A stretch of 64,000 nt of DNA, from positions 59,330 through 123,329 of the forward strand of contig QPGO01000032.1 of assembly GCA_008632985.1 (NCBI GenBank), given 5' to 3'. Below, piece after piece: positions 34,559 to 64,000 of the stretch (position 1 is its first letter; every line of letters begins with the position of its first letter). The notes beneath the pieces were generated by a model. That model did no database searches, was not told the DNA's origin, and worked only from the letters and a program-made list of their open reading frames with translations. Made by a program: the position numbers and the translations under genes. Source of the stretch: Psammoneis japonica. Taxonomy: Eukaryota.

Positions 34559-35041
34559 CCCTTCAACCACCGGACTTGAGAGCAAATTTCCACAGGTGGA
34601 GATTTGCTTGCTCTTGTCACAAATGCATTAAATGAAACATTGCCAGACATGGGGCAATGAAGAATTCATGCCATTTTGTTTTGGAGCACACATTTGCAGC
34701 CGAAAACTCTTGTGGGCCATTGCTGCAATTTAGAAAGTTCAATGTCAACTTTTAACACCGGTTTTTTTTGCATGCCCCATGCATGGAACTAAATCTCAAT
34801 TTTTAACAATGACATTTATGATGGGTTGTTGTCACAACAATGGAGCACCAGATGCCACACCCTTCTTGAAGCAAATCTCCACCAATGGAGATTTGCTTGC
34901 AACAAGCAAATGCATGTGGCACATTTTATGCAGATTGCACATGATGCAACATTTTTGTGCCACGTCCATTGCATTGTTGTGCAAATGCATGACACATCAC
35001 AACTCAACAAGTGGAGCAATTGCTCCATGGTGGTTGAAGGA
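34559..35041. mobile_element. Non-autonomous piggyBac-like MITE (about 483 bp)
   Basis: TTAA (34555-34558) + CCCTTCAACCACC ... GGTGGTTGAAGGA + TTGA (35042-35045). The right TTAA duplication appears as TTGA. Confidence 0.75.
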
Positions 35042-35105
35042 TTGAGAGCACTGTTTTGGAGTGCACATTTGCCAAAAGCCATGCTGGGGACCATTCTTTG
35101 AAATT

Positions 35106-37708: not shown

Positions 37709-37976
37709 AAAGTTCAGTGTTGACTTTCAACACTGGGTTTTTTGCATGCTCAATCCATGGACAGAAAGGGTCCAAATCTCAACCTTTGACAATGAAGTTT
37801 GTGATGAGTTGCCATCACAATGGAGCAGCAAATGCAACACCCTTTGACCAAATCTCCACCGGTGGAGAGATTGTGCATGATGTGACATTTTCACACTGTG
37901 TTCATTGCATTGCCACACAAATGCATGATGTGCCACAGTTTCTCAAGTGGAGCAAATCTCTGTGGTGGCTGAAGGG
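37709..37976. mobile_element. Right part of a second piggyBac-like MITE copy
   Basis: Homologous to 34734-35041 and ends GGTGGCTGAAGGG + TTGA (37977-37980). Confidence 0.7.
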
Positions 37977-39459
37977 TTGAAAATTTGACAAGCCAACAGG
38001 ATTTGCATGCAGAGTTTCACAAGACATTTTTAACCACGACCGGTCAAACTCATTTGGCATGTCCCCACAGTCCTCCAGGAGGTGCTTTGGGAACAACAGA
38101 GAGCATCCCTGTGGCATCATGTGGCTCAACACCATCAGCTTTTGCTGTGGCTGGCAAAAAAAAAGTGGCAACAACCAGCCAACAGCAGTCAGGCCAGTGT
38201 GCGAACTCACCAATGCATCATCTGAAAAGAAGACAGGGCCTGGTGGTCCCATGGGCACAGCCACATGTTGGGCCATTGCTCTTTTCAAGATCACACCATG
38301 AGTGTGAGCATCAGCCCATTTTCCACAGTGAGAGCAAATGATGAGAGACAGGAGTTGCTGAGAGTGGTGCATTTGTTGCTGAAGTGAGTGCCACTCTTTG
38401 TTGACCCTGTCTCCCACGTCCTGACCCTTCAAGCAGCAACCAGCAGCCAGGAATTCATGTTGTCCATATCGTGTTGGGTGAGTTGTCAAACCAAATCAAA
38501 TGACAACCACCCCAAATGTCAGCCAAAAACCACATCTTCACTGCTGTTTGGCCTTGTCAAGGGAGGGCACAAAAAATGCAGGAAAGCATGCAGCAATGTG
38601 CTCAAAACATTGAATCAGCAAGAATGAGAGAAACATTCAATGGCACTCCATTGGTGGTGGACAAGATCAAAAATCAAGACTCAAGACTCACGGCTGTTAC
38701 AAAACTTGTTGACGAGTGCCATTCAAAGCGCGAGGAGCCAAAAACAAAGCCTTGGTCACACGAAGAGGTCTGTGTGGATGACACGTCGGGTGATGATGTG
38801 TCGAATGGAGAAGATTGAATGACACCATCTTTCAATCAGGCGGTGCCAGACAACATCAAGATCTTGTGCATTGGATTGATGGGCCTCTCCATTCGATTCT
38901 CTTACTGTAGCGTGTGTTAAAACCCTTTGGAGTTACTCCAATTGCACCGGGATACCCGCTGCAGTCCAGTCTATGTAGTCGCGTGAAAAAGTGAAGAATG
39001 GTGGCTGAGCTTTATCTAACTCTACTCTTTCGCTCTTGCTCGATTCACACGTTCCTACTGATTCGTGACACCTTCTCTTCTTCCTGACCGGAGGAACCAA
39101 AGGTTGTCTCCTACTTTGCACTTCCTTATAGTGCGGGACTAGTATAACATTGATTTTGGGGAACCCCGAGGATCATTGATTGTTCATTGTTCTTGCATCA
39201 AATCTACCGTAGCCTCCTCACGGAACAGTGTTGTTTTGGTATAATGTTCCGAAACGATTCATTCGTTACTGTCCAATCGAACAAGCGTTTCATGGAAGGG
39301 CGATATTTTTGCCGGGCAAGGTTTGCACCATCATGACATTGGGTGCGCCACCTTGTGTCCCAACAGGACTATCATCTACCCGATTCATTTTCAATCCAAG
39401 CATCATTCGATTCTTCTTCTCCTTCTTCTTCGTTTGCACCATTCTTTGGTTCCATGGTA

Positions 39460-43941: not shown

Positions 43942-44220
43942 AGGCCTGTTCCAGCCCCAGGTGATGAGCAATCCATCACGCGTGAGGCCGATTTTCTGTG
44001 CAGTCCAGCACATTGAACTCCTTCAAATTTGATTGTTTTGAAAATTGAAAGGTGAGCGCACACAAAGAAATGCAAGTTTTGTGGTGTGCACTCACACCCC
44101 TCGATTTGGAAAAACCCCGATTTTGAAGGAGGAGTCTGATTGCGTTGGGGCTCCAATTGCAAAAATGGGCCAATGGTGGGAATCAAGCATGTGCGCATCA
44201 CCTGGAGCTGGAGCAGGCCT
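43942..44220. mobile_element. 279-bp MITE with 29-bp terminal inverted repeats
   Basis: AGGCCTGTTCCAGCCCCAGGTGATGAGCA (43942-43970) versus TGCGCATCACCTGGAGCTGGAGCAGGCCT (44192-44220), 26/29 complementary; flanked by CA on both sides. Confidence 0.8.
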
Positions 44221-44699
44221 CAAATCACCTCAGGGTCCTGTCATCATTCTCTTTCAGGAACCACACGAGCCAGGCTGAGACCAAAAGAAAAAGCAAACCT
44301 GTCATGTTGTTGGCAAAAAGAAAGATTGGAAGACTTGGAGCAAAAACCTGAACAAGCAAGACAGATTTTGGAATGAATTTGTCAAACTGGCACAGGTTTG
44401 TTCTCAAGCTCCAGGTGGTGACAAAAAAGTTTTTCACAGTTGGCTGCACGATTGAGAGGCCACACACCTGATGGACCAGTGCCAAGAGAATCAACAAGCA
44501 TTGCTGGGAGCAGCACTGTTTCAAGCAGCCTTTTCCACTGGAGAAAAACAGGCTGTTCATTGAAGTGGAGGTGAGTTGGAATGAGTGCAATTGAGAAGGA
44601 GTCTGGGGAGGAAGCATTTGAAACCAGACAGACAGATTTTAAAAAACTGTTCATGAAGGTGAGTTGTTGAAGGCAGCTGTGAAATTCAGCATGTGCAAA

Positions 44700-45550
44700 T
44701 TTGTCTTTTGAGGACTTTCAGCCCAAGCGCTCCTGCTCCATGTCAAATGGAGTTGTGAAGCCATCATTTCAATTGGTGCACTGTGTTGAACAATTCTTTG
44801 GGCAACTTCTGCAAAATGCCCAATGCAAGTTTTTGACAACAAGGTGACAACTCCAATGCCACTGGTGCAAACAACCAATCTTTGTGTCACTGCAAACCAT
44901 GCATGGCAGGACAAATCAAAGTGCCAAACACAGCAAAAACCATGCAGCTGTTCCACACTCCAGTGGTGCACATTGGGGCCTGACAGACATCTGCAGCCAT
45001 TCTGCAGCATCTCCATTTGCCACTCCAGTGGCTGTGTCTTCAGTGTTGAATGGCACTGAAAGCATGCTGTGTGCAACAGGTCTTTTGTCTGTGAATGGCA
45101 TTCAACATGTGCAAGGGCACAAAAACAAAACATTGCACACATGAAGAACTGCACTCTGTGGTGACTCCCTCGAGCAAGTGCTGGAGGAAAATCCCTGAAG
45201 CAGAAGCTCAACTCAACAGTGCTTGCAACATGATGGTTTTGAGCTTTTATTTCTGCAGGCTTTCACATGAAATGCATTAAAAAGTGCTTTGTGGCACAGT
45301 GCCACCCTCTTGTGAAAGATGCCTTTTGTCGCGTTGGACTTGTCTGTGCACTCCTTGCAACTGGCGCTGGCTTGGACAACAAACTCTGTTGTGCTGTTGT
45401 TGAGTGTTGCAAGAGTGTCACCTCTCAACAGCCTGCTCATGAGCATGGGCTTTTCTGCACCAGCCACAATGTTCTGACCACAGTTGATGCACCCAGGGGT
45501 GGTTGTTGCTCTGAAAGAGCAGTCACTCTTTGGACATTCCAGCACTGAAG
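44700..45550 (-). pseudogene. Degenerate Ty3/gypsy-like gag remnant inside TpA/CpG-depleted block 43810-46610
   Basis: GQNIVAG...SRLLRGDTLATLNN...KEC...KGIF and DFPP resemble diatom gypsy gag (RLLRGDAL...FP...QKRYMRR...FFPP). Recognition from memory only. Confidence 0.45.
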
Positions 45551-46716
45551 CATGGCATGCTCAGCTTTTCTGTGCCAGACAGCTGATGTTGTCATCTGCC
45601 AGCAGTTGTGCAGTTTGTGGCAGCACTTGGCACTTGCCCTTTTGCAGTTGCTTCTCCCTGGGACACTGTGTGGAGGAATGGGGGGGGAGCAATTGCTTGC
45701 AATGCAATGAGCAGTGTGATGACTCATGTTGATTGTTGTTGGTTCGGCGCAAGTTTTTTTGTGGCTTTCATTGTGTGTCAGTCTCACGATGATGAAAAAC
45801 CAACAGTCTGGAGGACCACCCATCATGCCAGACAGTGCCACAGTTGCATGGAGCACTCTGGCTGGCACTTGTGCAACTTCACAGGTGGGCATCATGCCAA
45901 AAATTCAGTGCAGTCATTGAGTTGGGTTTGTCAACAGTTGTGAAGGCATTTTCACCCACCACCAGCTCCACCTCTGCACATGACTGCACTTTGCCTTCTA
46001 GTCTTGTCTGCCTGCCTCCCACATGTGGTGCAACACTGAGGGGTTCCAACCAGGCTTCAGCCATGGTCAGCGCTGCGCACACGCCATGGCTGGCTGGCTT
46101 TGTCAACACAAGAAGGTTTCTGTGTGCACTTGCGAGAGCAAGGTTGTGATGTGCCTTGTGCACTGAGTTTGGAGACAAACATTGAGCAGTTGTTGAGGTT
46201 GTTGTTGATGATGACAATTGGTGTTGTGACAACAATTTTTGAGTTGGCACAATTTGCTGCTGTGAAATGCTCAGTTGTTGCACGACGAGCTGGTGCTGCA
46301 CCCATGACTTCACACATGCACACATGAGTGTCTCAATCCATGAACCAAGAGCTTTGTGCTCCAAGTTCATCTCAGTGCTTGGTGAAGGCTGCACAATGTG
46401 CACAAAGCCGATGTTCACAGGCATGAGTTCAGGGACTCCAGTTGGTTGCGGGGCGGGGCAACAATGGCGCCCATGCCCATGCGTGATTTCCATCGCGGAC
46501 GCGACTCCGAGTCGTGCTTCGTCGCTGTGCGCGGGTTGAGTTTCGTTTGTGCTGCATTGAGCACTTGTTCATGTCTCACAACAAAAAGCTGCGGATCGTT
46601 TCATGTGTGCTGGATCATGTATGTTTCAGAACTTCACTACGTGGTGCTTCTTGGTTTAAGTGCTTGCACAGTCTTTCAAAGTGAGTCCCTCTTGTGGCAT
46701 TCACCAGACAACATAG

Positions 46717-47974: not shown

Positions 47975-50024
47975 CTAGTTGCCTCCGCTCCCCCCAGTAG
48001 AATTCTTGGGAACAATCTTTCGTGGTGGCAGAGCAATGGGTGGGGCAACGACTTCTGCGCCCTCCTGTACACCTTCGTTGTATTCTGTCATGTACTGAAG
48101 AGCTCCGCATTGGTTGGCCAACAGAGATGCTACAGCTTCGGCTTGTGCATGAGTCAAGGCACCAATCCGACCGCCGACTCGCGCTCTCAGGATGTCATTC
48201 AAAATGGGATCCGTGTCCTCAACAGGCGGACATTCCAAGCTCACTCGCACACGAATTTGCACAGGAAATGGCGAAGATGTCGCCTTTGGGTTCTTTGAAA
48301 ACGCAGTTGGTTCAATATTCATAATGGCGGGTGTCAATGCTTCAAATATCCCAAACAACAAACGGTCAGTCACGTTGAACAAAAAGATTGGAGACCCTGG
48401 CGCAATGACGGATGCTGCAGCTTTCATGTGCGAAGGCAATCCCAAAATACCCCTACCCAAGCACTCATCCATGGTTTCGATCGTACACGGGAAGATGAAG
48501 CCAGGTCCAGGCATGACTGGCCAAGCAACTTCGTCCGGTTCGGGACAACGAAAGTCGGTCAAGAGAGCATCCACAGCAGGCGGATCCGATTCTCCCGAAA
48601 ACGATTCATACAGACTAACCAATGGTGAGTTCCAAAGAACCTTCATCAACGATTCTCCCGTATTGGGGTTCATGTCTTGACAAAAACGCGTGTTCTTGGT
48701 GGGCAGGAGCAAATCGGGCGCGGCTTCGACAGCGGTGTTAATGTCCAACTCAGTAGTACGGTACCATTCCACCTTGAAGCGGTAACAAAAGGCATCATCT
48801 TCGTTTCCACTGGCAGCCTTTTCTTGAAAGGTCGCAATCGACGTCATGAGAGCTGCGCCTTGAATGTGTCTCGAGTCACTCACTGTAAAAAAGATCATGA
48901 CTTGGCGTTTGCCATCACGAAACGCTTCGTTGAGGCGTTCTGCATCCCGCCGCTGAACATACCATTCACCCTTGACTGTACTGATCGCCAAGTCCCGTTG
49001 AGTGGCAGCCCGGACAATAAAGAAGGAAGCCTGCTCTGGCTCGAGAATCGGATTTGGCTTTCCTCCCTCCGCAGAACCACCGTGGTAGTAGTCAAGAGTT
49101 GTATGTTCTTGCGTACTAAACATATTGTCCGAAAGCTCTTCGCCACTGCCCTCCGCTTCTTGTTCTCGTTGACGCGGAAATTTCTTCAGCTCGTGCTCTC
49201 CGTGTGCAAAGTGGCATCCGTCGCCAAAGGGACATTCACCCTGCATAAAGTGCTTGCACAAACTAACTTTGTAAAACTCGTTTGGTTTCGGTGCAGGCCG
49301 ACGTGCCGTGACACCATCCTTGCCAGACGCCTGCATTTGACTGAGACCAAGTGTAAAATCCGCAACCGCTGGTAAATCCACACGATCCCGAGCAATGTGC
49401 TTGTATCGACAAAAGGGACCATGGATGCAAAAGCCCTGAGAGTAAAAAACGCACTCGAGCCGGTCTTCTTCGGAAATGTGTCGAAACGGACAATCCTTAA
49501 TTTTACACCGATCTCCGTGACGACATAAAGGCATTTTGGACAAGTCGTATTGATGCAAAAATTCACACGCTGCTCCCTTCATGCACAAATCACGGAGCCA
49601 GTGACGACAAACGACGGTACGCAAACGGGGATCGTGCTTGGCAGACGTCATGACGGGCTCGGCTTCTTCTCCAGTAGCAAATACAGAGCCAGCCTAATCA
49701 TAAAAAAGGAAAAAATAGTATAAGTACAGCAGTCTAATAGCAGCAAAAAGAGTAACACCAACTTCAATTCAATTCAATTCAATCTAGCCTATGACGAGCT
49801 TTTACAACGCCTGATATGCCTTTCAATCCACAACCATGGATTACTCTTCAACTCACCTTTCGATAGGGCAACGGATCTAACGTTTCAGGAATACCATGTT
49901 CCAACGCATACTTTTCAAAATCATACTGTATGGTATCCACCGTAAGTGGGGCCTTCTCAAGAATATGTGTTGGGCCACTGTCAGCGGCGGATGCCATGGA
50001 TGTTGTTGCCGCTGTTGTCGCCAT
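47975..50024 (-). CDS. CPSF4: CPSF30/CPSF4-like protein: CCCH zinc fingers, YTH domain, DCD domain; 2 exons (50024-49857, 49693-47975)
   Basis: RTVVCRHWLRDLCMKGAACEFLHQYDLSKMPLC, CVFYSQGFCIHGPFCRYKH, YKVSLCKHFMQGECPFGDGCHFAHG; YTH SFFIVRA...GEW...LNEAF...IQGAALMTS; DCD GFIFPC...GLP...IFLFN...FGIFEA...PFPVQIRV. Phase-0 GT-AG intron 49856-49694. Confidence 0.9.
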
Positions 50025-50764
50025 GGTGTTTGGGGTTTTTTGTGGATGTCGGAAAATTGTGAGACAGTCGTCGCGCGATCCCATGCGCGTTTCTTCGTTG
50101 TTCGAATTGGTTCGCGCTCCCAAATGTTTGTCAGTATCGATTGCACGTCGATTTCTACCTATCACGAGCTATTTGGTCTGTGTCAAAAGCGAGCTAAGGG
50201 CAGACGTATACCGGCAGTAGTACCACTGCAAATGAGAATCACTCTGAATAAGCTGTTTTCGCTCTAAATAAAAAATAAACAGAGCATTTTGCTCCGATTG
50301 CAAGTGCTAAATAATTAATTGTGGCTTTGCTCCATTTAAGCCATAGTCAGAGCGACATGCTCTGTGTATAAGACAATCAGAGCAAAGTGCCAATGTTTGC
50401 CCTGTTCAACCGCATTCAGAGGATGCCTTCGATTAAGTGCAATTGTTCAGGGCATTCGCTTCAAATGGCTGCAGCCTCCTGCGACCTTTTACATTCTCAG
50501 AGCAAATGGTTTTTCTTCAAAGCAAACGAACAATGAACACACACACACACAATGAGACGCAATGATGGACGATTCAAAGCGTCATTGGCGCACATGCACG
50601 CATGCATTCATGGTTGCCAGTCAATGCTCGCAATCTCGTCGTTTTTGTTTGTGGCGATCTGTCGACGAGCATCGTTGTTGCTCTGTTGTTGTCAATTGTC
50701 GCCTGTGTCGGCGCATCGCACACACAGCACAATTTTTGCATTTCCACCTTTGTCTGTGTGAGTC

Positions 50765-53700
50765 ATGGCCTCCACAGCCTTCTCCACATGCTGCAAACAT
50801 TGCTTCTCGACTGTTCCATTGACTCAATGTGACAACTCCAACAGCATCGTAAACATGGGTGATTGCCTCTGTTCCGGCAAATGTCTCAACCCGGAGTGTT
50901 CAGTTGATTCCTTTTTTGTCTGCGAATGCTGCTGGAACAGCAGCAACACAAACAGCGGTGGTCGTCATCTTCCAATTCTTAAAGATTGGAAAACCTGCGT
51001 CAAGCACGCCAAAACTCCAACTCATGTGCAATCCTTTGAAGCTTTGAAAGCCGCACCAACAAGCAGTGCAAATGCCGTGTGTGCGCCGGCGGAGCCTGCA
51101 CACGACGAATGTTGGTGCAACGATGACAATGACGCCTCTGTTTCCGAGAGCAAGGAGCCTTCCAACCAAGATGATTGGATTTACGACGTCAATGATGCCG
51201 GCTCACGTCCTCCATTGCGCATTGATGATCTCCGACAAGGTTTTGATCCGGACTCCAACAGCCCGGCCTTTTTTTGGTGCGAGCATTCGCACCCCGGACA
51301 AGGCATCCAGAAATTGACAGCTGACGCTTTTGAATTGCCCGTCACCGAGGTGACCAAAGAAGAGGCCCATTTTTCACTTGTGATGGCTAGCCTGCTTTCA
51401 CAACTCACCGAGAAACAACGTGAATTGTTGGCAGAATGCATGCTGCAAGCCACAAACAGCCGTGATCCAGACTTGTCCATTTTTCGTCGGACTCGTGTCC
51501 CCACTTCTGTGAAAGATTTTGAAATGTTGCACTTGTCCAGCAAATGTGCCATTGTGCCAAATTTGCCTCATCCTGTTCCCAGGAAAACCGATGATGGCAG
51601 TCATTCCCATGTTTCCTTTAAAGACGTGCTTGCAAATGAGTTGGCAAAAGCCACGCAATTTGACAAGTTCTATTTTGATGCGGACGTCATTGTTCAAGAT
51701 TCGCAACCTGCCATTTCGCGCACACCGGCGGCGCATTCCTTGTTCATGGAACTTAAAGAAGATGTCAACGGTTTTGTGTTGTATCTTTGGGTGCGAGAAT
51801 GGCGTGATGACTTTGATCCCAATGGCACGAAGAAGTCACGCAATCAAGTGTGGCTTAACACGTGCACCTGCTGCCCTCCTCCCAATTCTTCCAGTGGACG
51901 CCACACCTGCTTCATGGCAATGTCGTCCAAGGGAGAAAATCATGAAGTTGTGGAGACAATGTTTGAACGTGAACTGCAGTCATTGTCTGAAGAAAGCCAT
52001 TGGTTTTACCATGGCGGACTGCAGAAGCTCACACGGGTTAAAGCTGGCAAACTCAGTGTTTGTGTGGATCGGCCTGAACGTTCCTGCATGTTTCGTGTTG
52101 GAGACCACAATGGCAGCTGTTCAACGTTTTGGGAACATGCCTGTCATGCAGATGGAAACTGTTCTTTCAATCACTTGCCTCATTGTCAGCTCTGTCGCAA
52201 AGCACATGTGAGCAACCATTTTAGCACGTCCGAGGATCCTTCTGATGTTGCCGACAATTCACAGGAAGAAGGAGCACCAGTGGATGGAGCAGTTGCAATC
52301 AACGTTCCTCCTGTTTCTGGCACATGTCCACACAATGCTTGTGCATCCTGGAATGTGTTCGACACTGCGTTTCGTTTTCTGGCTCCGGCTGACTGCCCCT
52401 GTTCACATGACCAACGCGAAGGTGCACCGAAACCTCCCACTGGCAGGGAAGTGACTGTCTTCAACCCGTCGGCACATGACATCCAATCCACTCAAGACTT
52501 GGCCACAGATCCATCCACATCGACCGATTCTTCTCGTCGCAGACGCAAACGCCAACGTGTGGCCGCCCCAAGACAATGGTTGGCCTCCATCAAACTCACT
52601 GTTCCCTGGTTACAGCAAGCGATCGTGTTTGCGCATCACAACATGAGAACACATCCGCCGGGCACCCCAAGTGCCAAGCGCTTTTGGACCAAAGCTAACC
52701 TCACGGCCTGTCTTCGTACTTGTGCCGTCATCCAACGCCACATCGACACAGTGCACGCAGCTGCAAAATGCAATCTGCCTTGCCCAACACATCCAGCACC
52801 TTGGCTTAATCCCAAAGCACTTTCACGTTGTCATTGTGCACCAATGCACACCATTGGTCTGGGCAATGTTAAAAGTGATTTCGAAATGATGTCCAAATTG
52901 TTCTCTCGATTTGAACTTCAGGCAACCTTTGGAAAGCAAGCAAACAAATGCTTGCGGTCCATCCAGTCCCTCCGATCAACCAAACATTTTGCGGCTCATC
53001 CACTGTCCACCAGCAAGTGGGGCACAGGTCCCTGGGTCAGTGAAAATTGCTTCTTTTGGGCAAGGACAGTAAAATTTATGGTTGCGCTGCCTGCGCTTCA
53101 CCAACAACGGGCAATGGACAATCACTCGGATTGTGCAGGTGTGTCACGGATGTTGCTTCGATTCGCTTCTGCCACACAAGCTTGTCTGAGCCGAGTCATG
53201 TCTTCGGAGCGCGTTGTTGGGGACCTTCACGAAATGGTTTTGACACATTTGGATGCAATGGTCGAGATGGACATGTGGTTGATGAAAGCACCCTCAGATG
53301 AGGCAGACAATGATGCCGTAGAAGGCGACGGTGAAGTTCAGAAGAAAAAGAAAAAAAGGCGAACTTTGTGAAATCTGTTTCACTTGGAATGCTGGGAGTC
53401 ACGGAATCCCACCAACATGATGGACCGGCCATTCTGCATTGGGAGGGTGACGATTCTGGAGAAAGTGGTGTGCAAACTGTGAGGCCAGAGGTCAGCATCA
53501 AACGCAGCAATGCAGGCTGGCAAACAATCGCTTTGCGTCACATTCACCAACAGGCAACCATTTCTTGGCTTTTAGAACGTGACAGTGAGAAAGGTTCATC
53601 GAAGAACAGACGTCTAGATGGCATCTTCAAAATCTACAGCAACTGGAACACATTGTTGGAGGCAAGACAGCAATGCCTTCCCTTTGCTGGCCTTGTGTCG

Positions 53701-54063
53701 TCCGATTGCACTGTGTGGCTGTTGTTTCGACCAGTGGGTGAAAAAGGAGCTGCTCGCTCCTCTGCAACTGCAGTTGCTTTAGAATTTGTGGATGAGGAAG
53801 GTGAAGAAATTTTGGACTTGTGTTGGATGGCGCCAGCTCAAGTGACAGACAGGAGAAAATCATTTGATGCGGCAACAGATCTTTGCAACAGTTTGGGACA
53901 TCAGTTTGTGCTGGCATTGCCAAGGATGGAAGATGATGGTGAAACGTTCCTAAACAGCTTTTATTGTGTCAGCCATCTGTGGAATGAAAGAACCAGAGAT
54001 GGATGCTTTGTGAAAACGGAACTCAGCTTGGACGTTTTCGACGATTGGTTGACAGCCGGCTAA
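50765..54063 (+). pseudogene. Plavaka/CMC(CACTA)-like transposase, frameshifted in an A-run near 53345-53357
   Basis: EWRDDFDPN...NQVW, VCVDRPER, CAPMHTIGLGNVK, WVSENC, then (KANFV)KSVSLGMLG...DGPAILHWEG...GE. These match the WxDD, DxPE, MHxxxLG and GP...W pattern of CMC/Plavaka transposases. Confidence 0.7.
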
Positions 54064-54311
54064 CCATCAACTGCTCTGTCATCCGTCTCGGTTGACAATC
54101 CAGCCTGTGTGGGGGAGACAATGGCATGAGCAGTGCACGTGCTCCAATGGTGGATAGACCCGTGAAGGAGCAGCGCACATGCTCTTTTGTTTAAAGACGC
54201 ACTGTTGTGGCCGACACGCAGCTAGCTGCGGGGGACAAGAAGGACATGCGAGCTGGGCATCTGCTCTCATTTCATGTTCCTCTTTCTCTTTATGAAGTGG
54301 AACTGTGCAGA

Positions 54312-56720
54312 TTAGTCCCTCATTGCGTTTGACATTTTGTTTTGGGCCAAAATGTCCAACATCGCCTCTGGTGGATTAGACAGCAGTTTGTCAAAATTGA
54401 GTTCAAATGCAATTTGAATGGGACCATGATCCCAGGTCGACCCGGCCCAATCATTGTCCTCACACAGTTCTTTGGCAATCTCCTCCATCTTTTTTTCCTC
54501 ACTTTCACATGAAAAGTTTTGGATTAATCCACCGGGAGGCAGCTCTTCGGGGTCACTGGAACCATCAAAGTGACAAAGAAAATTCACCTCATCGTGGAAA
54601 ACAAAAAATGACATTCCTGCAAAATGGACATCGCAGCAGTTTACCCTCCCTTTGCTGATCCAGAAGCGAAACATTTTGCAAAGAATGTTCTCAACAAAAC
54701 GAATGGTGAAGTGAGTGTCTTTCTTGTCATCACCCCCGGGGTTGTTCAACTGCACAGTGAATGCACCCTGTGTGGTTTGAGCCAAATGGAACATGTCCGC
54801 ATCGTCCATCTTGCCCAGTCCACATTCTTCGGCAATTTTTATGTCAGGGAGGGAATCCTTTTTGCAGTGGCAACAATGCAGCATCCAAACAGGAAGCTGG
54901 CCAATTTCTGCCATGATCGCAATCGAATGATTGAGATGCAAGACGTCGCATTGCGGGGAGAATTCAGACAACTGATTCATCAGTTTCTTGTAAATGGAGA
55001 CGATGTCTTTGTTTTGTGGCTTGTTTGCATGCTCATTCCAAATGTCACAAATCCACTTTCCCTTTTTGTCATTCCATTTTTTCCATTCAGCCTTGGTTGG
55101 CAAGGGTGGTCTCTTGCTGCGTGACGCACATCGTAGAGGGATGCCTCTAGAGTGTGCCTCTTTTGCGTGGACCATCATTTCGTAAATGAGATGTCCCAAT
55201 CCGCAGGGGTCGCTTGGTGGCTGGAAGGCATCAATGGACAAAAGAACCAACGCAACTGCTCCAAAGCAATGTGACTGCGCCGGGTGCACCTCGAAGCAAG
55301 TCTGAACAGCGACAATCTGCGGCAACGTAAGTGAGAATTTGTCAATCATTGCGACAATGAAGTGTAGAAAGAGCTGGTGGCATGACGTTGGTTCCATGTT
55401 GCAGTCGCCTTTTAATGCATCGATTCCTTTGTGTCCCTTAAATCCTGTCAAGTGATCATGGACAATTGCCGGCTCCAGTCGTTGCCGGTGCACGGGCAAG
55501 TTTTGGTGGGTGCGAATGGCTCGTGTTGTGATGGGCAAGGCAAGTCGAATCCTCTTCTCCGCAGTTTCTACAGAACTGCGGGTGCAAGCAATGACAGCAT
55601 CTCTTGTTTCTCTGTCATTTGTGATTTTTGAAACAGACAAAACTGGGGTCATGTCTTTGTTTTGGCCGTTGCATTCATCCAAGTGGCAATCCGTAATTTT
55701 GCCAAATTTGGCATTCGCCAGATGCAGTGCCTCCACGACATTATTTGCTGAGGCATCCGGCAATGAACCCGCGTGGTCTTGACGTCGGTTTTTTGTCTCT
55801 TCATCGTGCCACAATCTAGATGTAAAAGTGGGATTCAGTGTCTCCGCAATTTCAGACATTGACTCAAAAAAAGGCATTGCTTCCTCAGTCCCTTTCCTAA
55901 CTCAAGGCCGTGCAACACCATCAGCATGGCCTTCCTTTGTAGTGCTTGTGTTGGTGCAAACGCCGAAATCTGCAAAGTGGTCCTTTGGTTGACGATGGGT
56001 CCCAGTTTTCTTGGGCTTGTTGCTTTTCTTTTTCTGAAAACGTTTTCTCTTGCCAGTTTTCTTGCCAACATTGCCTTTCCTTGTTTTCTTTCCCTGGTTG
56101 CTTTTCGACTCACGTTCATGGCATTTGTCAATCAGCACGCGCGATCGGTCCCAGTCAATGCGGCAGATTGGGTGTTTGTTTGGAAAGTGGTCAAGCACCA
56201 ACATGAAGTCATTGCAATGGTCGGAATCAACATCATACAAGGACCATTTGATGTCAGTTTCATCCTGTCCAAGTGTTGACGCCAAATCCAGAATTGGCAC
56301 TTGGCAGTGGGGGATGTCTGTTCTGCTTGCCAAGTGAACCTGCAGTTTCGACTGGAAGACAACATGCAGATGGGTGGCATGCTTTTGCCTGCGTTCTCCA
56401 GACAGTTTCCCCAAATTGTCAAGTGCTTTGGCTTTTCCAGAATTGTAACGGAAGTGAGCACTGTTCATCTCCTCAAACACAAAAACAACATTGAACATGT
56501 TTTTGGCATGCAAGCTCTCTTCTTGTGGCAGGGAACGGGACAACACTGTTTTCTCCCGCCGAGTCTTGTGGTTGCCAGTGAAAGTTGGACGCTGCATCTG
56601 CAAGGGCAGTGCTGCCTCAAAAGCGCTTGAATGGCAATCAGATGATTCGTCTCTGCTTCCATTGGGCAAATCAGAATCAGAAAAAATCAATGGGAAGTGC
56701 TGACACAACTGCGCCATCAT
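54312..56720 (-). pseudogene. About 800-aa cargo protein with TET/JBP-like HxD..N and RxxxxYxR motifs and a helical HhH-like C-terminal domain; one internal TGA
   Basis: ORFs 55902-56720 and 54312-55877 are in one frame, separated by a single TGA (55902-55904, likely from CGA). CHLDECN (HLD at 55677-55685), RDAVIACTRSS (55578-55604), LNHSIAIMAEIGQLP and TIRFVENILCK (54675-54692). The functional call is tentative. Confidence 0.45.
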
Positions 56721-57964
56721 GCCAATGCAAATGATGATTGGTCGCTCTGACTTGAGAAAACAGAATCAATGACACCACTGTTTGTTGATTGTTCCTCGAC
56801 GTGATGCACAGAAGCCGAGTCCTCATGGCGTTTTGCTTCTTCCCGCATGTGCTGCACACTCAGCAAGCAAAGCAACCGGTCTGCTGGTCTTCGCTTGCGA
56901 GGAGGTGGAGACCGTCCCAGGGGAGATTCCAGGCTGCGTGACCTGGATGTGGCAGATCTTGTGCGGTGTGAGATTGGACTGCCACTTCTGTTTCTGCGGA
57001 GTCGCATTTGATGAAATGGGACCATGCCACTGTTGGCAGGTTGACTTGTTCTGCTTGAACTCCTTGAGCGGATGCTGTCATCTGCAGAACGTGCGGGAGG
57101 ATGGCTTTTGTCCCAACTGCGACTCTCAGATTTTCTCGATGCACCCAACCTGTGCGAGCGCAACGAATGCCTGGGTTTGCGAACACGCGATCGACCCCGA
57201 CACCTGGATGGTGACCTCAACATTGTTGGAGACCTGTTTTTTGACCTGGAGGGTGACCTGCACCTGGATGGTGACCTGTGCGGTGACCTGTGTCTACGCC
57301 GAGGTGACAATCTAGACCTTTTGTTGGAAGAATCCAGAGACCTTCGACGAGACCATTGCGGTGAACTGGATGGAGACCTTTGGCGTGACCTCTGCCGCGA
57401 TTGCGATCGACCTTGGTGATCCCCACATGGAGAGCAGGGAACAGCACCACAACATTCCCTGCAACTGCACCGGGAACTTGAGTCATGGCAACCCATGGAT
57501 GGTGACCGACACTGTCGCCGATGCCTTCGATGAGAATGAGACCTAGACCCAGAACAACGAGACCTTGATCGACAAGGAGAACCACGCGAAGAAGTTCCAG
57601 AACGACAACGATGTCTGGTCCGATGACGCGATCGAGACCGAGAACTTGACAAAGAGCGAGACCGAGAACTTGACCAAGACCGGGACGGCGATTGATGCCT
57701 TCGTCGTTGGTGGGAATTCGACCTCGACCTGCATCGCCGTTTAGACAGTCTGCGTTCCCTGGATCCGTCGTCTCGATTTGACCACAACCGACCTGTGGAA
57801 CTTTGAACAGGCGATTCGGATCTTTGACAAATCAAGCGACCCGGCGGATCTCTTGATGGACGCGCACTCCTTGTCCTTCTTCCCTTGGGAGCGCCAGATC
57901 TGCTCCAAGCGGGAGCGTCACATTTGCCTTTTCTGTGATGCATGGATGGTTCGAATTTGAGCAA
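56717..57964 (-). CDS. Arg/Ser-rich low-complexity cargo ORF (probably degenerate)
   Basis: 415-aa frame of RSRS and RSPS repeats. An upstream frame (57918-58175) with CSHC may be its N-terminus. Confidence 0.5.
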   Translation of the reverse strand: MLKFEPSMHHRKGKCDAPAWSRSGAPKGRRTRSARPSRDPPGRLICQRSESPVQSSTGRLWSNRDDGSRERRLSKRRCRSRSNSHQRRRHQSPSRSWSSSRSRSLSSSRSRSRHRTRHRCRSGTSSRGSPCRSRSRCSGSRSHSHRRHRRQCRSPSMGCHDSSSRCSCRECCGAVPCSPCGDHQGRSQSRQRSRQRSPSSSPQWSRRRSLDSSNKRSRLSPRRRHRSPHRSPSRCRSPSRSKNRSPTMLRSPSRCRGRSRVRKPRHSLRSHRLGASRKSESRSWDKSHPPARSADDSIRSRSSSRTSQPANSGMVPFHQMRLRRNRSGSPISHRTRSATSRSRSLESPLGRSPPPRKRRPADRLLCLLSVQHMREEAKRHEDSASVHHVEEQSTNSGVIDSVFSSQSDQSSFALA

Positions 57965-58634
57965 GCAGATGCTGCAATGAAAAACAATGAGAGCAGAACA
58001 GCTTCACAACTCCTTTGTCATTTGTGCGAGAATGTGATTGTGCGATGATGATGTTGCCTTTGTCTGGTCGTGATTGAGAGATGATGTATGTTGGGTGAGT
58101 CAGAACACCGGAATCCGGAATTTTGCATGTCATCCCCTCACGTGGCCAACTGGTTGTGGCCGCCTGCAGCGCCACAAACAGAACACCACAAAAATTCTGT
58201 GTTCATTGTAGAATTTAATGAGAAAATAAGTCCCCTCTTTTCTACAACATCACTGCATTTGCCGCATGTTACAATGACACAAATGTCAGAAAAGCATGCA
58301 TCCATGACACCGCCGCTGACACCGCTGTTGTCATCAAACTTTGCTGTTCATGCAATGCTGTTGTCATTCATCCTTCCATTGCATGTTGTCATTCTTGTCA
58401 ACTTGTTGACAAGTGTTGACAATGTTGTGACCTTTAGTGAAGGTTCATTGCGAGACACCACCAGAACCGAAACTTCATCGCTGCTGTAAGAACAATGCTG
58501 AGCTCACGGCGCAGTCTGCACATTGTTTCTTTATCTCACATCTCAGACAATTTGGTGTGCATGCTGCATTTCGTTGACTCTTTACAATCATCATCAGGTG
58601 CTGCCACGAAATTGGTTGCAGACAAAGTCAGCAA

Positions 58635-59586
58635 CTTCCCTGCATCTCCGCGTCAACTGCTGACAATTGCACAGCAACGGACGAGTGGGACTGCCAGTCC
58701 GTCGCCCAGCGACATTCCGCCAATCGGTTTTCAATGATGAGACCTGGAGAACTGGCTGGGGCACCCTCGTTGTGTTGTGCAGTTTGAAGAAAAGGGGACC
58801 GGCTGATCTGGGTTGTGTTGGCAGACGGCATGAGCTCCTTTTTCCTTGACATTGTCAAGAACACATGTGTTCCAAGGCCACTGTTGTCGGTGGGTCGTCT
58901 CCGTCTGTTGTGTCTCTTCCCTGCATCTCCGCGTCAACTGCTGACAATTGCACAGCAACGGACGAGTGGGACTGCCAGTCCGTCGCCCAGTGATGTTCCG
59001 CCAATCGGTTTTCAACAATGAGACCTGGAGAACTGGCTGGGGCACCCTCGTTGTGTTGCACAGTTTGAAGAAAAGGGGACCGGCTGATCTGGGTTGTGTT
59101 GGCAGACGGGGTGAGCTCCTTTTTCCTTGACATTGTCAAGAACACATGCATTCCAAGGCCGCCATTGTCGGTGGGTCGTCTCCGTCTGTCACATCTCTTC
59201 CCTGCATCTCCGCGTCAACTGCTGACAATTGCACAGCAACAGACGAGTGGGACTGCCAGTCCATCGCCCAGTGACATTCCGCCAATCGGTTTTCAACAAC
59301 AAGACCTGGAGAACTGGCTGGGGCACCCTCGTTGTGTTGTGCAGTTTGAAGAAAAGGGGACCGGCTGATCTGGGTTGTGTTGGTGGACGGCGCAAGCTCC
59401 TTTTTCCTTGACATTGTCAAGAACATGCATGTTCCAAGGCCACCATTGTCGGTGGGTCGTCTCCGTCTGTTGTGTCTCTTCCCTGCATTTCCGCGTCTGT
59501 CGCCCACCGACAGTCCGCCAATTGGGTTTTCAATGACAAGACCTGGAGAACTGGCTGGGGCACCCTCGTTGTGTTGCACAGTTTGA
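58635..59586. repeat. 281-bp tandem repeat, three full units plus a partial fourth with an internal deletion
   Basis: cttccctgcat anchors at 58635, 58916, 59197 and 59478. Confidence 0.97.
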
Positions 59587-59629
59587 CGCAAACAAGGCAG
59601 CAGCAAAGGGAAGCGAGGATTCGCCTGCG

Positions 59630-62600
59630 ATGTCAAGGGACAATGGAATGAAAGCTCTTGCCAAAGCGGCTGTTGTGGCTTCCCGAGAAGAGAATGAGGA
59701 AATCCGGTTGTCACAGGAGGAGAACAACCACAATTCCCAGGAAGAAGATGTGGAAGAAGAGGAGGAGGAAATGCTGGAGGAAATGCGGACGTCAGAGGAG
59801 GACAAGGAAGCTGTGAATTCTAAGGAAATGGACAATGATGCTTCTCAGGAGAAGAAAGATGCGGGTTCTTTACCAAAATCATCAAAATCCAAGGAGGGGG
59901 ACATTCAACACATTCCCACCAAGCTCCGGCGTTTCGTGAATGCAATCAAACATGACATGTCAAAGCGTGTGCGGGACAATGTCCACCGCACTTGTCCCTT
60001 GTTTACCGTGGTCAACCCAAGCACAGAACCAAAATCACTGACAACACTGGCAAATTCTGGATGCGGGCCGAATGATCGCGGGAAGAAATGCATTTTGTTG
60101 CATCACAACCAGAAGGGGTTGTCATCCGACTTCGGCAAAGAAGCAAGTAAAAAAGCAAGGGCAGCTGTAAAGGATTTTCTTCTTCGTGAATTTAATCAAG
60201 AAAACGAAGGCGACATTGTCGACTTGTTGAACAACAAACACACTCACATTTTGGGAATTTGTGCAATGCCAAAAAATCAAGAAAGTGGCAAACTGGCAAC
60301 TGATCTTGTCGCTGCATTGTTGCATCGGTGCATTGAATTGGTGCCAGTGACAATTGTTGACTGTGTTCGAGTCGACAGAGGAGCCAAAGCACATGACCAT
60401 GGGTTGTGCCCCTTCCTGATTAGCCTGGCTCAATCTATCGGCTGCACGGTTGTTGGCACTTGGGACACAATGCTGCATTGTCAAGTCAAGCTCAAACAAT
60501 GCCACTGTGAAAGTTTGGGTTTCGAGGACATCACAGAGGAAATGAATGAGGAGCCCTCTTGGGAAAGAGCAAGACACCATTGGAATTGGAGTGCTTTGAT
60601 CAAAGAGGACGGAGACAACACTGGGGCACTGATGGTGAAACGCAGAGTCACCACACGTTGTGCAAAAATTGCGTTGCCCATCTCTCACACAGAGGATGAT
60701 TTCCAATGCAATGTAAAACATTGGCGAGATCGTGTTGGGTTCTGGAGCAGCAAGAAGAGACCCGCCGATCAATGCCAAGATTTGGTGGATCAAGAGAAAG
60801 ACCTCATCTACAAATCGTCAGTGGTGATGGTTGGCAATGCGACACTGGATTCTTTTAAAGATTCCTGGCAAAAACACATGGATGGACGCCAATGGTTTGA
60901 CATTGGAAAGTGCATTTACGAATCCTACGAACATTGCGTGGGTGCAAGTGACGCCAACCAAGTTAAGTCACATTTCAAGACAACGGCTTTGTTTGCCGCA
61001 AGCGTCAATTTCTCCCACCAAATGAGCGAATTGGCAAATGATGAAACATGGAAAAGAGCGGCGTTTCGATCGAGGACTTCCGAGCTAGCTCAAAGAGCGA
61101 AATGTGTGAGGGGCAAGTTTAACGCAACTGCGGAGTCGGGAGCTGACAACCGGAAGTATGTTCTCAGCCCCAAGTGTCACCAACGGAGTCGGAGCGATTC
61201 AGATGAAGACATGGAAATGGAAATGCCTTTAGGTGATGATGGAGCCACATGTCAACTTCTTGAAAGCATCTGTTTGAAGTGCAACACGTGCAACATGGTG
61301 TTTCCCATCGATTACAACCAGGAAGATCAAGGTGGACTGTCACCAGCAGCAACTTTGTTTTCAGTGCTTGCGGGACCTTGCTGTGATCATGCAATGTGTG
61401 TTCCGGGCAAGTGCCCCATTTGCACTGCACAAAGCAAAAGTGCAGTGTACGAACTGCTGGTTGGTGCTGCACAAGAAGACAGAGAAACTCTGAAGGACCT
61501 GGAGAAACGCCAAGTGTGGTTGAACAAAAAGGATTTCTTTCTGCCACCTTTGCGACACATTGCAATTTGGTGCAAAGAAGCAGAACAACTGCATTGGCAC
61601 CAGATCAATCGGTTGTTCCGACAATGTCATTTTACAGAGCTGGCGAAGGAGGCGATGCTTGACAAAAAATTCTCTGCCAGGGGAAACAAGAGAGAAAAGA
61701 AGGAACCGAAACCACAAGAGGGAGATGGTGACCCAGAGGAAGAGGAGTCCGAATCGGAACCAGAAGATCAAGGTCTCCTTGTGTCACGAAGAAAAGTGTT
61801 GTCTGCCAGGGACAAGAAATGTCAAGATCTACATCATGAGGCGAGGATGCACTGTGAGGATGCCAAAGAATTGGAACGGCTGCATGGTTTTGAGTGGGTC
61901 GATCGGGCCACACGGCCGGATGAAAGTGAGGTGCCAGGTGATGCTGTTGATTGTGAAGGACCAGTTTTGTGTGGATGGTTCGAAGATTTCAAGCACGGCA
62001 GAACATTTGCTGAAGACCATTTTGGAGCGACGAATGACAAGGACATTGGAGGAGGGCCGATGAACCTTGTTCGAGCCGCAATTGAGGAAGCCAAACAGAA
62101 ACCCAACACAAGAGTGATTTTCAATGCCAGACAAAAGAGGCAAATTGGCAAAAGAGCTGATCACGCAATGAACAATGGCCAGGTTCACAAAGTGAGACGG
62201 CTGACAGCAAAGGAGCTAACAAAGGAGGGGCTTGCAGCCGATGATGATTTTGAAGGTCCGGAGGGAACGCCAGCATTCGTGGGGGTTGGCACAAGGAAGA
62301 AACCGTGCTGTTGCACCATGGAGTGGGCAAGAGCCAATTTTCAGCAGCGATGCCCCACAGTGTACAAGGCCATGTGTGATTGGGAACCAGGGAAGAAATG
62401 GCACAGACTGCCGGAGGGTCACGTGTCAGATAAAAGCGGGCTGGAATTTCCCAGCTCGGGACCCCCAGTCAAACATCAACAAGGGGAGAAAGACACGTGC
62501 GTGTTTTCGAGCCTGGCCAGTGTCCTAAATTACATTGGAGATGAAAGGATGGAGCGATGTGTTGTGAGTTGCATGGATCATTCTTGCAGATCAGAGAACA

Positions 62601-63028
62601 CCAACAACAAATGGTTGGAGTTCGCCATTGGCATGTTGTTGGGACAAAAGCAGAAGCTTTGTCCTCCACTGGCTGCATCAATGAAGTGGCATGCATGCAA
62701 GAAGCGTCAGAAAATGGCAGCTGGCAAGAGAGGATTCTTCGATTTGACCACCCACGTTGCCGATGACATCGTTCTTTGTCGGTTGACAAACAATCACTGC
62801 ATTGCTTTGCATGGTGGTTGGATCTTCGACTCCAGTCATGAATTCGCTCTTCCAGCAAAAGACATTCAGTGGTTGAATTGGTGTTCAGGGAATGACACAT
62901 TTGAAATGGATGCACTGGTGGAAGATCCAAAATCAGCAGTGGAGGAAGCAGTTTTTTTTGAAATGCCGAAGGCTGTCCAAACAAGGTTGCGTAAACGCAA
63001 GCGGCAAGATGATGCAATTGCAGGTTAA
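59630..63028 (+). CDS. 1132-aa cargo protein: acidic N-terminus, GNAT-like domain, Cys cluster, C-terminal papain-like (Cys-His-Asp) domain; hypermutated
   Basis: IVDCVRV...HGLCPFLISLAQ...QCHCESLGF reads as GNAT motifs once Tyr is restored. QQGEKDTCVFSSLAS and NHCIALHGGWIFDS fit a C39-like peptidase triad. Confidence 0.55.
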   Translation: MSRDNGMKALAKAAVVASREENEEIRLSQEENNHNSQEEDVEEEEEEMLEEMRTSEEDKEAVNSKEMDNDASQEKKDAGSLPKSSKSKEGDIQHIPTKLRRFVNAIKHDMSKRVRDNVHRTCPLFTVVNPSTEPKSLTTLANSGCGPNDRGKKCILLHHNQKGLSSDFGKEASKKARAAVKDFLLREFNQENEGDIVDLLNNKHTHILGICAMPKNQESGKLATDLVAALLHRCIELVPVTIVDCVRVDRGAKAHDHGLCPFLISLAQSIGCTVVGTWDTMLHCQVKLKQCHCESLGFEDITEEMNEEPSWERARHHWNWSALIKEDGDNTGALMVKRRVTTRCAKIALPISHTEDDFQCNVKHWRDRVGFWSSKKRPADQCQDLVDQEKDLIYKSSVVMVGNATLDSFKDSWQKHMDGRQWFDIGKCIYESYEHCVGASDANQVKSHFKTTALFAASVNFSHQMSELANDETWKRAAFRSRTSELAQRAKCVRGKFNATAESGADNRKYVLSPKCHQRSRSDSDEDMEMEMPLGDDGATCQLLESICLKCNTCNMVFPIDYNQEDQGGLSPAATLFSVLAGPCCDHAMCVPGKCPICTAQSKSAVYELLVGAAQEDRETLKDLEKRQVWLNKKDFFLPPLRHIAIWCKEAEQLHWHQINRLFRQCHFTELAKEAMLDKKFSARGNKREKKEPKPQEGDGDPEEEESESEPEDQGLLVSRRKVLSARDKKCQDLHHEARMHCEDAKELERLHGFEWVDRATRPDESEVPGDAVDCEGPVLCGWFEDFKHGRTFAEDHFGATNDKDIGGGPMNLVRAAIEEAKQKPNTRVIFNARQKRQIGKRADHAMNNGQVHKVRRLTAKELTKEGLAADDDFEGPEGTPAFVGVGTRKKPCCCTMEWARANFQQRCPTVYKAMCDWEPGKKWHRLPEGHVSDKSGLEFPSSGPPVKHQQGEKDTCVFSSLASVLNYIGDERMERCVVSCMDHSCRSENTNNKWLEFAIGMLLGQKQKLCPPLAASMKWHACKKRQKMAAGKRGFFDLTTHVADDIVLCRLTNNHCIALHGGWIFDSSHEFALPAKDIQWLNWCSGNDTFEMDALVEDPKSAVEEAVFFEMPKAVQTRLRKRKRQDDAIAG

Positions 63029-64000
63029 TTCTTCTTGCTTGGCATGGTTGTCGGGGCCAACGATTTCCAGGCATGCAGGCGTTTGCGAGTCACCAATGTT
63101 TTGCTGACAAGCCCGGCCTTTTCTGCAGCACGCAACAGTTGGCACGTTTGCGGCAGTGTGCAAGGCTTCCCACCAAGGACATTCATCATGAGCCCCTTAG
63201 TTTGAAAACATGTGCCCGCGGGTTGATCCGCAAAATGACTGAGCAATTTGTGTGTGCCATTCATTTCCTCGTCCATGCACGGGTGTGCGTTTAACCAACA
63301 GCGGCATCCATCAACAATGCATTGGCTCACAAGAGGCTTCGTCCACTGATCGTGCTTTTGGACTTTCACGTTGTCCAATGGGGTGGCGCAAAGCAAAGGA
63401 AGGAAACGATTCTTGGTCGCTGGCGTCAGATCACTTCGTTTCACAGGAGCAAACACAAGCAAGCCGCTGCCCCACGCATCTTGCTCTGTCACTTTGAGTT
63501 TCTTTAGGACAGTTTGTCAACGCTCGGCTGTGAGATAAAACTGTAAAGTTGCAGTCTTCCATGTCATGATAATTTGTTTACAATCCATGCCCGTGGAGGC
63601 ACCACGATTGGGAAGAGATGATGTCATGCTGCAAAACCGATTGCAATGATCGGGTTTTGCTAAAACTGTGCCAGCTTGCAGCCATTTGCCCATGGCAACA
63701 CAGGCAACAGCATCAACAAAATGCTTGGGTTTAGCCAGGCATGACAGCATGCATCCACTGCGTCCGCCTGTCATAATTTCGTCAACAACAATCTTAAAGG
63801 AATGGTGGTGAGCCAACCAACCGAGAGATTCTAGAAAGTTGTCGCTGAGTGTTGCGCCATTGTTTGCCAGCATTGATTCTAAAAACAATGCAGTGATTGG
63901 CACCTTCTTTGCAGCCTGCATCAAACAACGGAGATGAATGTGGTTGAGACAATCGTTTTCGCACTCACTGAGCTCCGCGGAGCTCAGAGTGCCTGGCATG
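63025..64000 (-). pseudogene. Class-III PLP-dependent aminotransferase-like cargo gene, 5' part beyond the window, one internal TGA
   Basis: ALFLESMLANNG, IVVDEIMTGGRSG, VAMGKW and AWGSGLLVF. ORFs 63517-63999 and 63025-63492 are in frame across a TGA at 63517-63519. Confidence 0.75.

Follow-up and report, generated by a model that had tools for sequence, protein, structure and literature searches.

The question raised by this locus is what kind of enzyme a diatom transposon carries as cargo. The locus lies in a 64,000-nucleotide stretch of Psammoneis japonica DNA (assembly GCA_008632985.1, contig QPGO01000032.1, positions 59,330 to 123,329; “the window”), in which a CACTA/EnSpm-type DNA transposon harbours a minus-strand gene that a preliminary description, made from the sequence alone, had taken for a compact TET/JBP dioxygenase fused to a helix-hairpin-helix (HhH) domain of the aGPT-Pplase type. 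The predicted fold and the conserved motifs support a first half with a TET/JBP-like fold and a second half with an HhH fold as in aGPT-Pplase2/AADT, while the window copy itself is a pseudogene. For the intact gene, we see an about even chance that it encodes a two-step DNA base-modifying enzyme, which in one chain would convert thymine (T) to 5-hydroxymethyluracil (5hmU) and this, in turn, to an amine adduct. The gene is laid out as follows (window coordinates):

54312–57943, minus strand: the whole cargo gene, which comprises about 1,220 codons in sister copies and is a pseudogene in the window copy; extent from sister-copy comparison
56717–57943, minus strand: Ser/Arg-rich low-complexity N-terminal arm (Ser plus Arg 47% in the copy on contig C149), severed in the window by two single-base insertions
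56235–56513, minus strand: N-terminal alpha/beta subdomain, residues 70–162, with the invariant His138 at 56307–56309 (motif pHYQ), a candidate third iron ligand
55551–56255, minus strand: TET/JBP-like dioxygenase core, residues 156–390, with H346-x-D348-x-x-N351 at 55668–55685 and R373-x5-(Y>C379)-x-R381 at 55578–55604
55902–55904, minus strand: premature TGA (codon 273), located at a CpG; 8 of 10 copies have an Arg codon here
54606–55526, minus strand: helix-hairpin-helix domain, residues ~399–705, with G-x-L-x3-H598, G607-x-x-P610-x-W and, at 54675–54692, E677-N678-x-x-C681-K682

On the minus strand, 54312–56720 forms a single frame of 802 codons with one in-frame TGA at codon 273, just as had been proposed from two open reading frames (ORFs) joined to about 800 codons; a plus-strand reading of the same interval was rejected for its many stops. 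The four peptides quoted in the preliminary description are all present in this frame, namely TDCHLDECN (H346, D348, N351), RDAVIACTRSS (R373, R381), LNHSIAIMAEIGQLP (containing H598) and TIRFVENILCKMFR (containing E677 and C681). The oxygenase half thus reads H346-L-D348-E-C-N351 and R373-DAVIAC-T-R381, and the C-terminal half N-H598-SIAIMAEIGQLP and E677-N-I-L-C681-K.

A DNA search of the whole genome assembly (91 Mb, 597 contigs) with the cargo ORF gave 19 matches, including ten full-length copies at 92–100% (the window copy among them) and one copy in two pieces. Over the ten full-length copies, codon 273 is CGA in seven, TGA in two and CGC in one. The window copy has two extra single bases, near 56683–56686 and near 56729, the former (near 56686) being private to it among the ten. 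The sister copies on contigs C149 and C153 have uninterrupted frames of 1244 and 1223 codons, respectively, which include the upstream Ser/Arg-rich ORF at 56717–57964. From these sister-copy frames together with the two insertions it follows that the gene spans about 54312–57943, that the ATG at 56720, previously taken as its start, is out of frame, and that the window copy, bearing one TGA and two single-base insertions, is dead. The earlier surmise that the fold may be reduced or inactive therefore holds for this pseudogene; for the family, in which HxD and the Arg are kept, inactivity is unlikely.

A family profile built from eight natural sequences found 767 representatives (clusters at 50% identity) at E<=0.001, 405 of them at 1e-10; the best 150 of the 767 were used in an alignment of 152 rows. 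The family is unannotated: among 20 clusters looked up there is one named member, from the diatom Attheya sp. CCMP212, and another member comes from MMETSP. Taken alone, HxDxxN occurs by chance in 14% of 10,000 shuffles of the protein (0.1% when R-x5-[YC]-x-R has to follow 15–90 residues on), a doubt that is removed by conservation over the 152 aligned sequences. The assignment of TDCHLDECN as an iron motif and the expected conservation of HxD and Arg are borne out by the oxygenase half of the alignment (H346 in 112/112 rows, D348 in 105/111, R373 in 101/112, R381 in 100/116, H138 in 93/96), and the HhH half is kept to a similar degree (H598 94/98, P610 101/104, E677 87/88, N678 81/89, C681 93/94, K682 81/91). 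Position 379, where a Tyr had been guessed behind the Cys of the window copy, is Tyr in 69, Gln in 24 and Phe in 7 family rows. The HxD, the Arg assigned to 2-oxoglutarate (2OG) and the extra His are near-invariant at only ~20–25% identity, and the window copy still retains 31 of the 33 columns conserved at >=80%. Since H346, D348, E677 and C681 are all kept in 65 of the 73 homologues covering both domains, long members are, as a rule, fusions; 52 of 59 homologues covering still more keep H138, too.

Beyond this family, sequence comparisons returned little. Searches of PDB sequences gave nothing meaningful (a match to reovirus lambda1 at E 0.006 was dismissed as low-complexity), the ESM Atlas gave no usable match for the core of the paralogue on contig C57, and the deep alignment drew no match in a word-index search. 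Among viral contigs, no relative was found using one close alignment as query, a search that shows little. For the gene, no RNA record was listed. An alternative RAG1 reading of a 521-aa ORF (ESM Atlas clusters at 0.87–0.89, under the lead level of 0.9) was rejected, as the recognition was sub-threshold and the fold unsupportive.

For the fold, AlphaFold2 was run on residues 62–779 with X at the stop and a 134-row alignment (pLDDT 86.3, pTM 0.86), and the model was compared with 48,161 solved chains. For the N-terminal half, four TET enzymes stand in the top five rows, as expected from the proposed TET/JBP-like oxygenase. NgTET1 is the top match (Z 8.6, rmsd 3.3, 164 of 265–266 residues aligned, model positions 95–329; Z 8.8 and rmsd 3.2 in a second comparison), alongside TET2 (7.2–7.4), CMD1 (7.3) and CcTet (7.2–8.1), with AlkB and FTO at 6.4. 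For the C-terminal half, HhH proteins fill the top rows, in line with the aGPT-Pplase-like domain proposed: gp46/PUGT (8z2m) aligns over 229 of 287 residues (model positions 338–644) at Z 7.1 and rmsd 4.8, DUF2419 proteins reach 7.3 and, for the human one, 7.1, and OGG, AGOG and MagIII 5.0–5.8. Values of Z below 8, or below 13 for helical folds, can reflect a common arrangement; the assignment is given weight despite its modest Z because every TET in the library clusters at the top and the motifs come in the right order. The AADT assignment is suggested by fold (Z 7.1, tied) and the ExxxC motif, not by a sequence profile.

Compared with the TET/JBP family (NgTET1 5cg8/4lt5, TET2, CcTet, CMD1; PF12851), the cargo protein thus shares the best folds and, in the same order, HxDxx[N/D] and the terminal R-x5-aromatic-x-[R/H]. 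In contrast, it has no distal His after HxD, an extra N-terminal subdomain with an invariant His, a fused HhH domain, and no profile match. It resembles the AADT (formerly aGPT-Pplase clade 2; PaMx11 gp46/PUGT 8z2m, M6 gp51, ViI gp247; PF18724) in the HhH fold over 229 residues and in E-[T/N]-x-x-C near the C-terminus; however, it is eukaryotic, transposon-borne and oxygenase-fused, with ~10% identity, no profile match, and no 5hmU kinase found in a weak search.

The unusually short interval between HxD and Arg and the lack of an evident distal His, remarked on at the outset, are a property of the whole family. In 87 of 98 rows, H and R are 23–30 residues apart; N351 is separated from R381 by 30 residues, versus 63 between D234 and H297 of NgTET1. 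As the model also holds just two strands after HxD (299–305, 311–318), the stretch from HxD to Arg lacks both strands IV–VII and the distal His. The double-stranded beta-helix expected of the predicted fold was accordingly recovered in part: the TET-like core is matched, but the barrel is incomplete. There is no His-rich replacement column downstream, none of the columns 349–419 exceeding 20% His.

A substitute may lie upstream. His138, kept in 65/65 homologues of a separate N-terminal alignment, starts a strand in the N-terminal subdomain of the model. A neighbouring strand (126–131) is present in the full model and missing from that of the fragment alone, which hints at pairing with the core. 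The isolated fragment folds by itself (pLDDT 88) and has no barrel match (best Z 3.4) and no Foldseek match at E<=0.001. In the covariation signal, which was dominated by noise, some of the expected strand pairs and an F80–T343 pair could be made out. Taken together with the model, His138 may replace the distal His, and a circularly permuted barrel is a reading that we place only slightly short of even. Because the distal His and strands IV–VII are lacking, the cargo protein is described here as TET/JBP-like and not filed as a TET/JBP member.

The base-reading positions are of the thymine type. Asn stands at HxD+3 (H+5) in 94 of 112 rows (106 with H+5 or +6), Asp in 1/112, and R381 occupies the place of NgTET1 H297, where JBP also has Arg. 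Because of this Asn/Arg combination and the near absence of Asp, thymine is favoured as the substrate. Consistent with this, D234 of NgTET1 sets its cytosine preference and D234N shifts it toward thymine (PMC4678852). For the second site, E677-N678-x-x-C681 resembles the Glu243/Thr244/Cys247 site of gp46 in motif spacing and position. In gp46, Glu243 and Thr244 are reported to bind a metal on thymine O4 and Cys247 to clamp the base (PMC11472151); in clade-2 enzymes, C6 is attacked by the Cys and an exocyclic methylene arises, and mutation of the Cys or the Glu abolishes activity (PMC8989533). Some phages without dUMP hydroxymethylase pair TET_JBP genes with these transferases (PMC8989533, PMC13229309).

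In the proposed two-step mechanism, the reduced TET/JBP-type Fe(II)/2OG domain would flip a 5-methylpyrimidine, most likely thymine, and hydroxylate its methyl group to 5hmU, the iron being held by H346, D348 and probably His138 from the N-terminal subdomain in place of the missing half-barrel, and 2OG presumably by R373. In the fused HhH domain, Cys681, assisted by Glu677, would attack C6 of the oxidised product; an exocyclic methylene would form, to which an amine or amino acid would then be added, as by the phage amino-acid:DNA transferases. The bulky mark might conceivably shield the element's DNA against host silencing or mutation.

Several results weigh against this reading. The canonical distal His and barrel strands IV–VII are absent from their usual place family-wide, and TET2, with Asn at HxD+3, nevertheless prefers 5-methylcytosine (5mC) (PMC4678852). 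The equivalence of C681 with C247 derives from motif spacing and not from residue-level superposition, the queuine-salvage hydrolases (7.3, 7.1) tie with gp46 (7.1) for the C-terminal half, and common arrangements of helical domains can also reach a Z of ~7. Foldseek with the full model gave nothing at E<=0.001; Tet_JBP or ADDT was matched in Pfam at E<=1 by 0 of the 57 homologues scanned of 150, and PHROGs by 0 of 40; the sole sequence-profile hint, a weak one, is PF09859 on one paralogue (E 0.051). The 5hmU kinase PF18748, which is needed by the phage transferases, had no match in a weak search of the genome. No such kinase was seen among the element ORFs scanned, which are heavily mutated. 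Hydroxyl activation is thus the main gap of the two-step reading, given that the phage enzymes use phosphorylated 5hmU. Likewise, Pfam Tet_JBP had no match in the genome, nor had PF18724, in a search whose control was also without a match.

The damage to the gene has to be kept apart from its function. Repeats in the window have a TpA rho of 0.13–0.14 and a CpG rho of 0.57–0.69, versus 0.41–0.55 and 0.87–1.01 in four host-gene stretches. TpA loss is near-complete (rho 0.01–0.2) and joined by CpG loss at 7847–15072, 19875–26540, 30001–38000, 44001–46000 and 50524–64000, with sharp boundaries against host genes; the first 300 bases of the element (50224–50523) retain TpA (rho 0.51; interior 0.13). 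Among 366 polymorphic columns over the ten copies, 157 are CpG-type and 83 TpA-type.

The cargo gene has paralogues in the genome on contigs C59, C459, C69 and C450 (38–47%), C57 and C81 (~33–37%), and C161 (24%). The C57/C81 pair (L056:6251-8991 and L058:6448-9090; 87–89% DNA identity, GT-AG intron) discloses the direction of change: 48 of 73 TA steps have become TG or CA, with 4 in reverse, and A-to-G occurs at 24/43 sites after T against 4–5% after other bases. C57 retains TpA, its tyrosines and an 86-nt GT-AG intron, whereas in C81 TpA loss falls off along the gene, from complete at the 5' end to slight at the 3' end. In the window copy, 13 Tyr-rich family columns hold His 6 times, Cys 4, Tyr 2 and Phe 1. 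The cargo gene is a victim of TpA→TpG/CpA hypermutation, which accounts for its damage and not its function. In Bigelowiella natans, TpA hypermutation of foreign DNA is reported, with an adenosine deaminase as the hypothesised agent (bioRxiv 10.64898/2026.01.13.699255). The TpA→TpG/CpA spectrum and the focus on selfish DNA are alike in both organisms; in Psammoneis japonica, in contrast, the process is near-complete, acts on transposons, and comes together with CpG loss.

The most serious rival to the two-step reading, possible though rather unlikely in our judgement, is a self-contained 5mC eraser, in which the TET-like half would make 5-hydroxymethylcytosine and the HhH half would remove it, either by excising the base or through an attack of the Cys on C6 that releases formaldehyde, so that the transposon escapes silencing by CpG methylation. 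The CpG depletion of the repeats, together with the 157 of 366 polymorphic columns that are CG/TG or CG/CA, indicates that the host methylates them, and the best fold matches are 5mC enzymes, with HhH glycosylases (OGG, AGOG, MagIII; Z 5–6) and DUF2419 hydrolases matched as well. On the other hand, the base-reading positions are Asn and Arg instead of Asp and His, and conservation in the C-terminal half falls on H, G-x-x-P-x-W and ENxxCK, with neither the conserved hairpin Lys nor the Asp motif that together mark glycosylases. A precedent exists in fungal TET+ transposons, for which escape from silencing has been proposed (PMC12730594).

Somewhat further off stands an elaborated form of the two-step reading, which we hold to be a long shot: a kinase-free, one-polypeptide, phage-like T hypermodification on a permuted or split TET barrel with its third iron ligand from the N-terminal subdomain, the amino-modified thymine being tied mechanistically, as shield or as cause, to the TpA→TpG/CpA hypermutation.

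Less probable again is a metal-free or dead dioxygenase half that binds a flipped or modified base as a reader and aims an active HhH transferase or glycosylase. The missing half-barrel and distal His would fit, as would the N-terminal subdomain, which alone matches no double-stranded beta-helix; the near-invariance of HxD, 2OG Arg and extra His at such low identity, however, would be rare for a dead site.

It is improbable that the protein is itself linked to the hypermutation, be it by removing an adenine mark, by blocking the TpA mutator, or by causing T-to-C changes via a miscoding modified thymine. TpA is erased in the repeats, directionally between paralogues, CcTet oxidises N6-methyladenine, and even where the process has been published the mutator is named as a hypothesis only; that hypothesis, however, is an adenosine deaminase (bioRxiv 10.64898/2026.01.13.699255). 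The link is weakened because Copia and LINE (long interspersed nuclear element) sequences without the gene lose TpA equally and the gene-bearing element is not spared, while TpA is at ordinary levels (rho 0.49–0.53) in six metagenome contigs that bear intact relatives; moreover, just 4 of 151 homologues are Tyr-poor.

A non-DNA substrate (RNA, free nucleoside or small metabolite), with the HhH half as a queuine-salvage-like hydrolase, is very improbable: DUF2419/QNG1 shares the top place among C-terminal matches (Z 7.3, 7.1) and a pyridoxal-phosphate (PLP) enzyme lies in the same element, but TETs outrank all small-molecule oxygenases, and one transcriptome-derived member (P0102/P0170) bears a C-terminal SAP DNA-binding domain (P0102, E 2e-7).

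Returning to the two-step enzyme, its parts have separate counterparts. DUF2419/QNG1 and the HhH glycosylases (OGG, AGOG, MagIII) share the helical fold (Z 5–7.3); the invariants of the cargo family, in contrast, are H, E, N, C and K and not the Lys/Asp pair of glycosylases. No description of this fusion was found in the literature searched, which left supplements and Iyer et al. 2013 outside its coverage; the text or supplements of that survey of aGPT-Pplase and TET/JBP proteins may list it. AADT accompany TET_JBP genes in some phages, as separate reports describe (PMC8989533, PMC13229309). The fungal TET+ transposons (Kojima 2025, PMC12730594; PU, AG and PE types in KDZ, EnSpm, Plavaka, hAT, Helitron and others) are alike in that CMCT-clade elements with CA..TG ends carry a TET-like protein, and in the spread over more than one superfamily (the C161 paralogue is found 1.6 kb away from a MULE domain, E 1e-7); unlike the cargo protein, theirs keeps the full 2-His-1-carboxylate triad. 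The portions of that article that were consulted make no mention of a diatom, stramenopile, alga or helix-hairpin domain. The dinoflagellate TET/JBP 5hmU synthases (PMC11572971) and kinetoplastid JBP1/2 likewise perform nuclear thymine oxidation in eukaryotes, enriched on repeats in dinoflagellates; they differ by canonical HxD and H...R motifs, and the consulted portions of PMC11572971 mention no transferase fusion.

Thymine hypermodification of the amino-acid type has been described for phages, while the eukaryotic thymine marks in the literature covered are 5hmU and base J. A fusion conserved in hundreds of clusters and tied to diatoms and transposons thus predicts an undescribed eukaryotic DNA base as well as a transposon counter-silencing strategy outside fungi, and intact relatives may write an undescribed chemical mark on algal DNA. 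If true, a working TET with its half-barrel replaced would redefine what is minimally required of a 2OG-oxygenase site, and an enzyme that modifies T in a single chain could become a DNA-labelling tool.

The host element and its other genes are arranged as follows:

50224–64000, plus strand: CACTA/EnSpm (CMC)-type DNA transposon of 18,247 bp, continuing 4,470 bp beyond the window end, to window-equivalent 68470
50765–54063, plus strand: putative DDE transposase, split in two ORFs, with WRDDFDP, VDRPER, CxxC, HxxxxH and EGG..GE (70 homologues, alignment of 38)
58635–59592, plus strand: tandem array inside the element, a 281-bp unit repeated ~3.4 times, which separates the two divergently oriented cargo genes
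59630–63028, plus strand: second cargo ORF, 1,132 aa, no Pfam match of note
63025–63999, minus strand: third cargo gene, resembling PLP-dependent class-III aminotransferases; its frame is open over 463 codons in sister copies (L051:6200-7588, L053:5621-7009), and it is broken here and extends past the window end

The termini read CACTGCAAATGAGA...TCTCATCTGCAGTG, with a 2-bp target duplication (AC) at the window copy. Apart from the window copy, 13 loci share the sharp left end and 9 the sharp right end, and the 2-bp duplication is exact in five of six pairable copies, the sixth being TG/TA. The ends CACTG..CAGTG agree with CACT[A/G] inverted repeats and target duplications of 2–3 bp; CACTG may be a mutated CACTA. 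In the homologue alignment of the putative transposase, D, D, CxxC, H-x4-H and E follow the CMCT-clade order as defined in PMC12730594, and the assignment depends on motif order, as the ORF has no Pfam and no PDB sequence match. By termini, target duplications and this motif order, the element is classed as CACTA/EnSpm-type. The same features led us to reject a viral or proviral origin, and Plavaka was rejected because the ends match neither TGT..ACA (A) nor CATCA..TGATG (B). No relation was found between the transposase and cargo-gene profiles.

In the second cargo ORF, stretches that by eye we take to be GNAT-like, RING-like and, at the C-terminus, peptidase-like have no Pfam match; a related subfamily on C59 has a RING match near the paralogue. 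The third gene matches PF00202 at E 6e-6 and 1e-5, below the curated cut-off. Such a PLP aminotransferase-like enzyme could supply an amine; PLP enzymes of a different class are likewise found in the hypermodification clusters of phages. Close relatives were retrieved at nine metagenome loci, six of them long, and the family includes intact homologues. In five of the six long loci (L099–L103), the intact gene lies tail-to-tail with a ~1,135-aa ORF, which shows neither a Pfam match nor similarity to the C161 MULE gene; by eye, it may be MULE/SWIM-like.

The left end of the element adjoins a host gene (47975–49651) with CCCH zinc fingers and YTH and DCD domains, which we take to be CPSF30-like. 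Elsewhere in the window lie a degraded Copia-type long terminal repeat (LTR) retrotransposon at 7847–15072, which has an RVT_2 domain and whose 245-bp LTRs are 87% alike, and a LINE-like element (RVT_1) at 19875–26540, of which an inverted, more degraded copy, ~72–75% alike, is found at 35115–37500.

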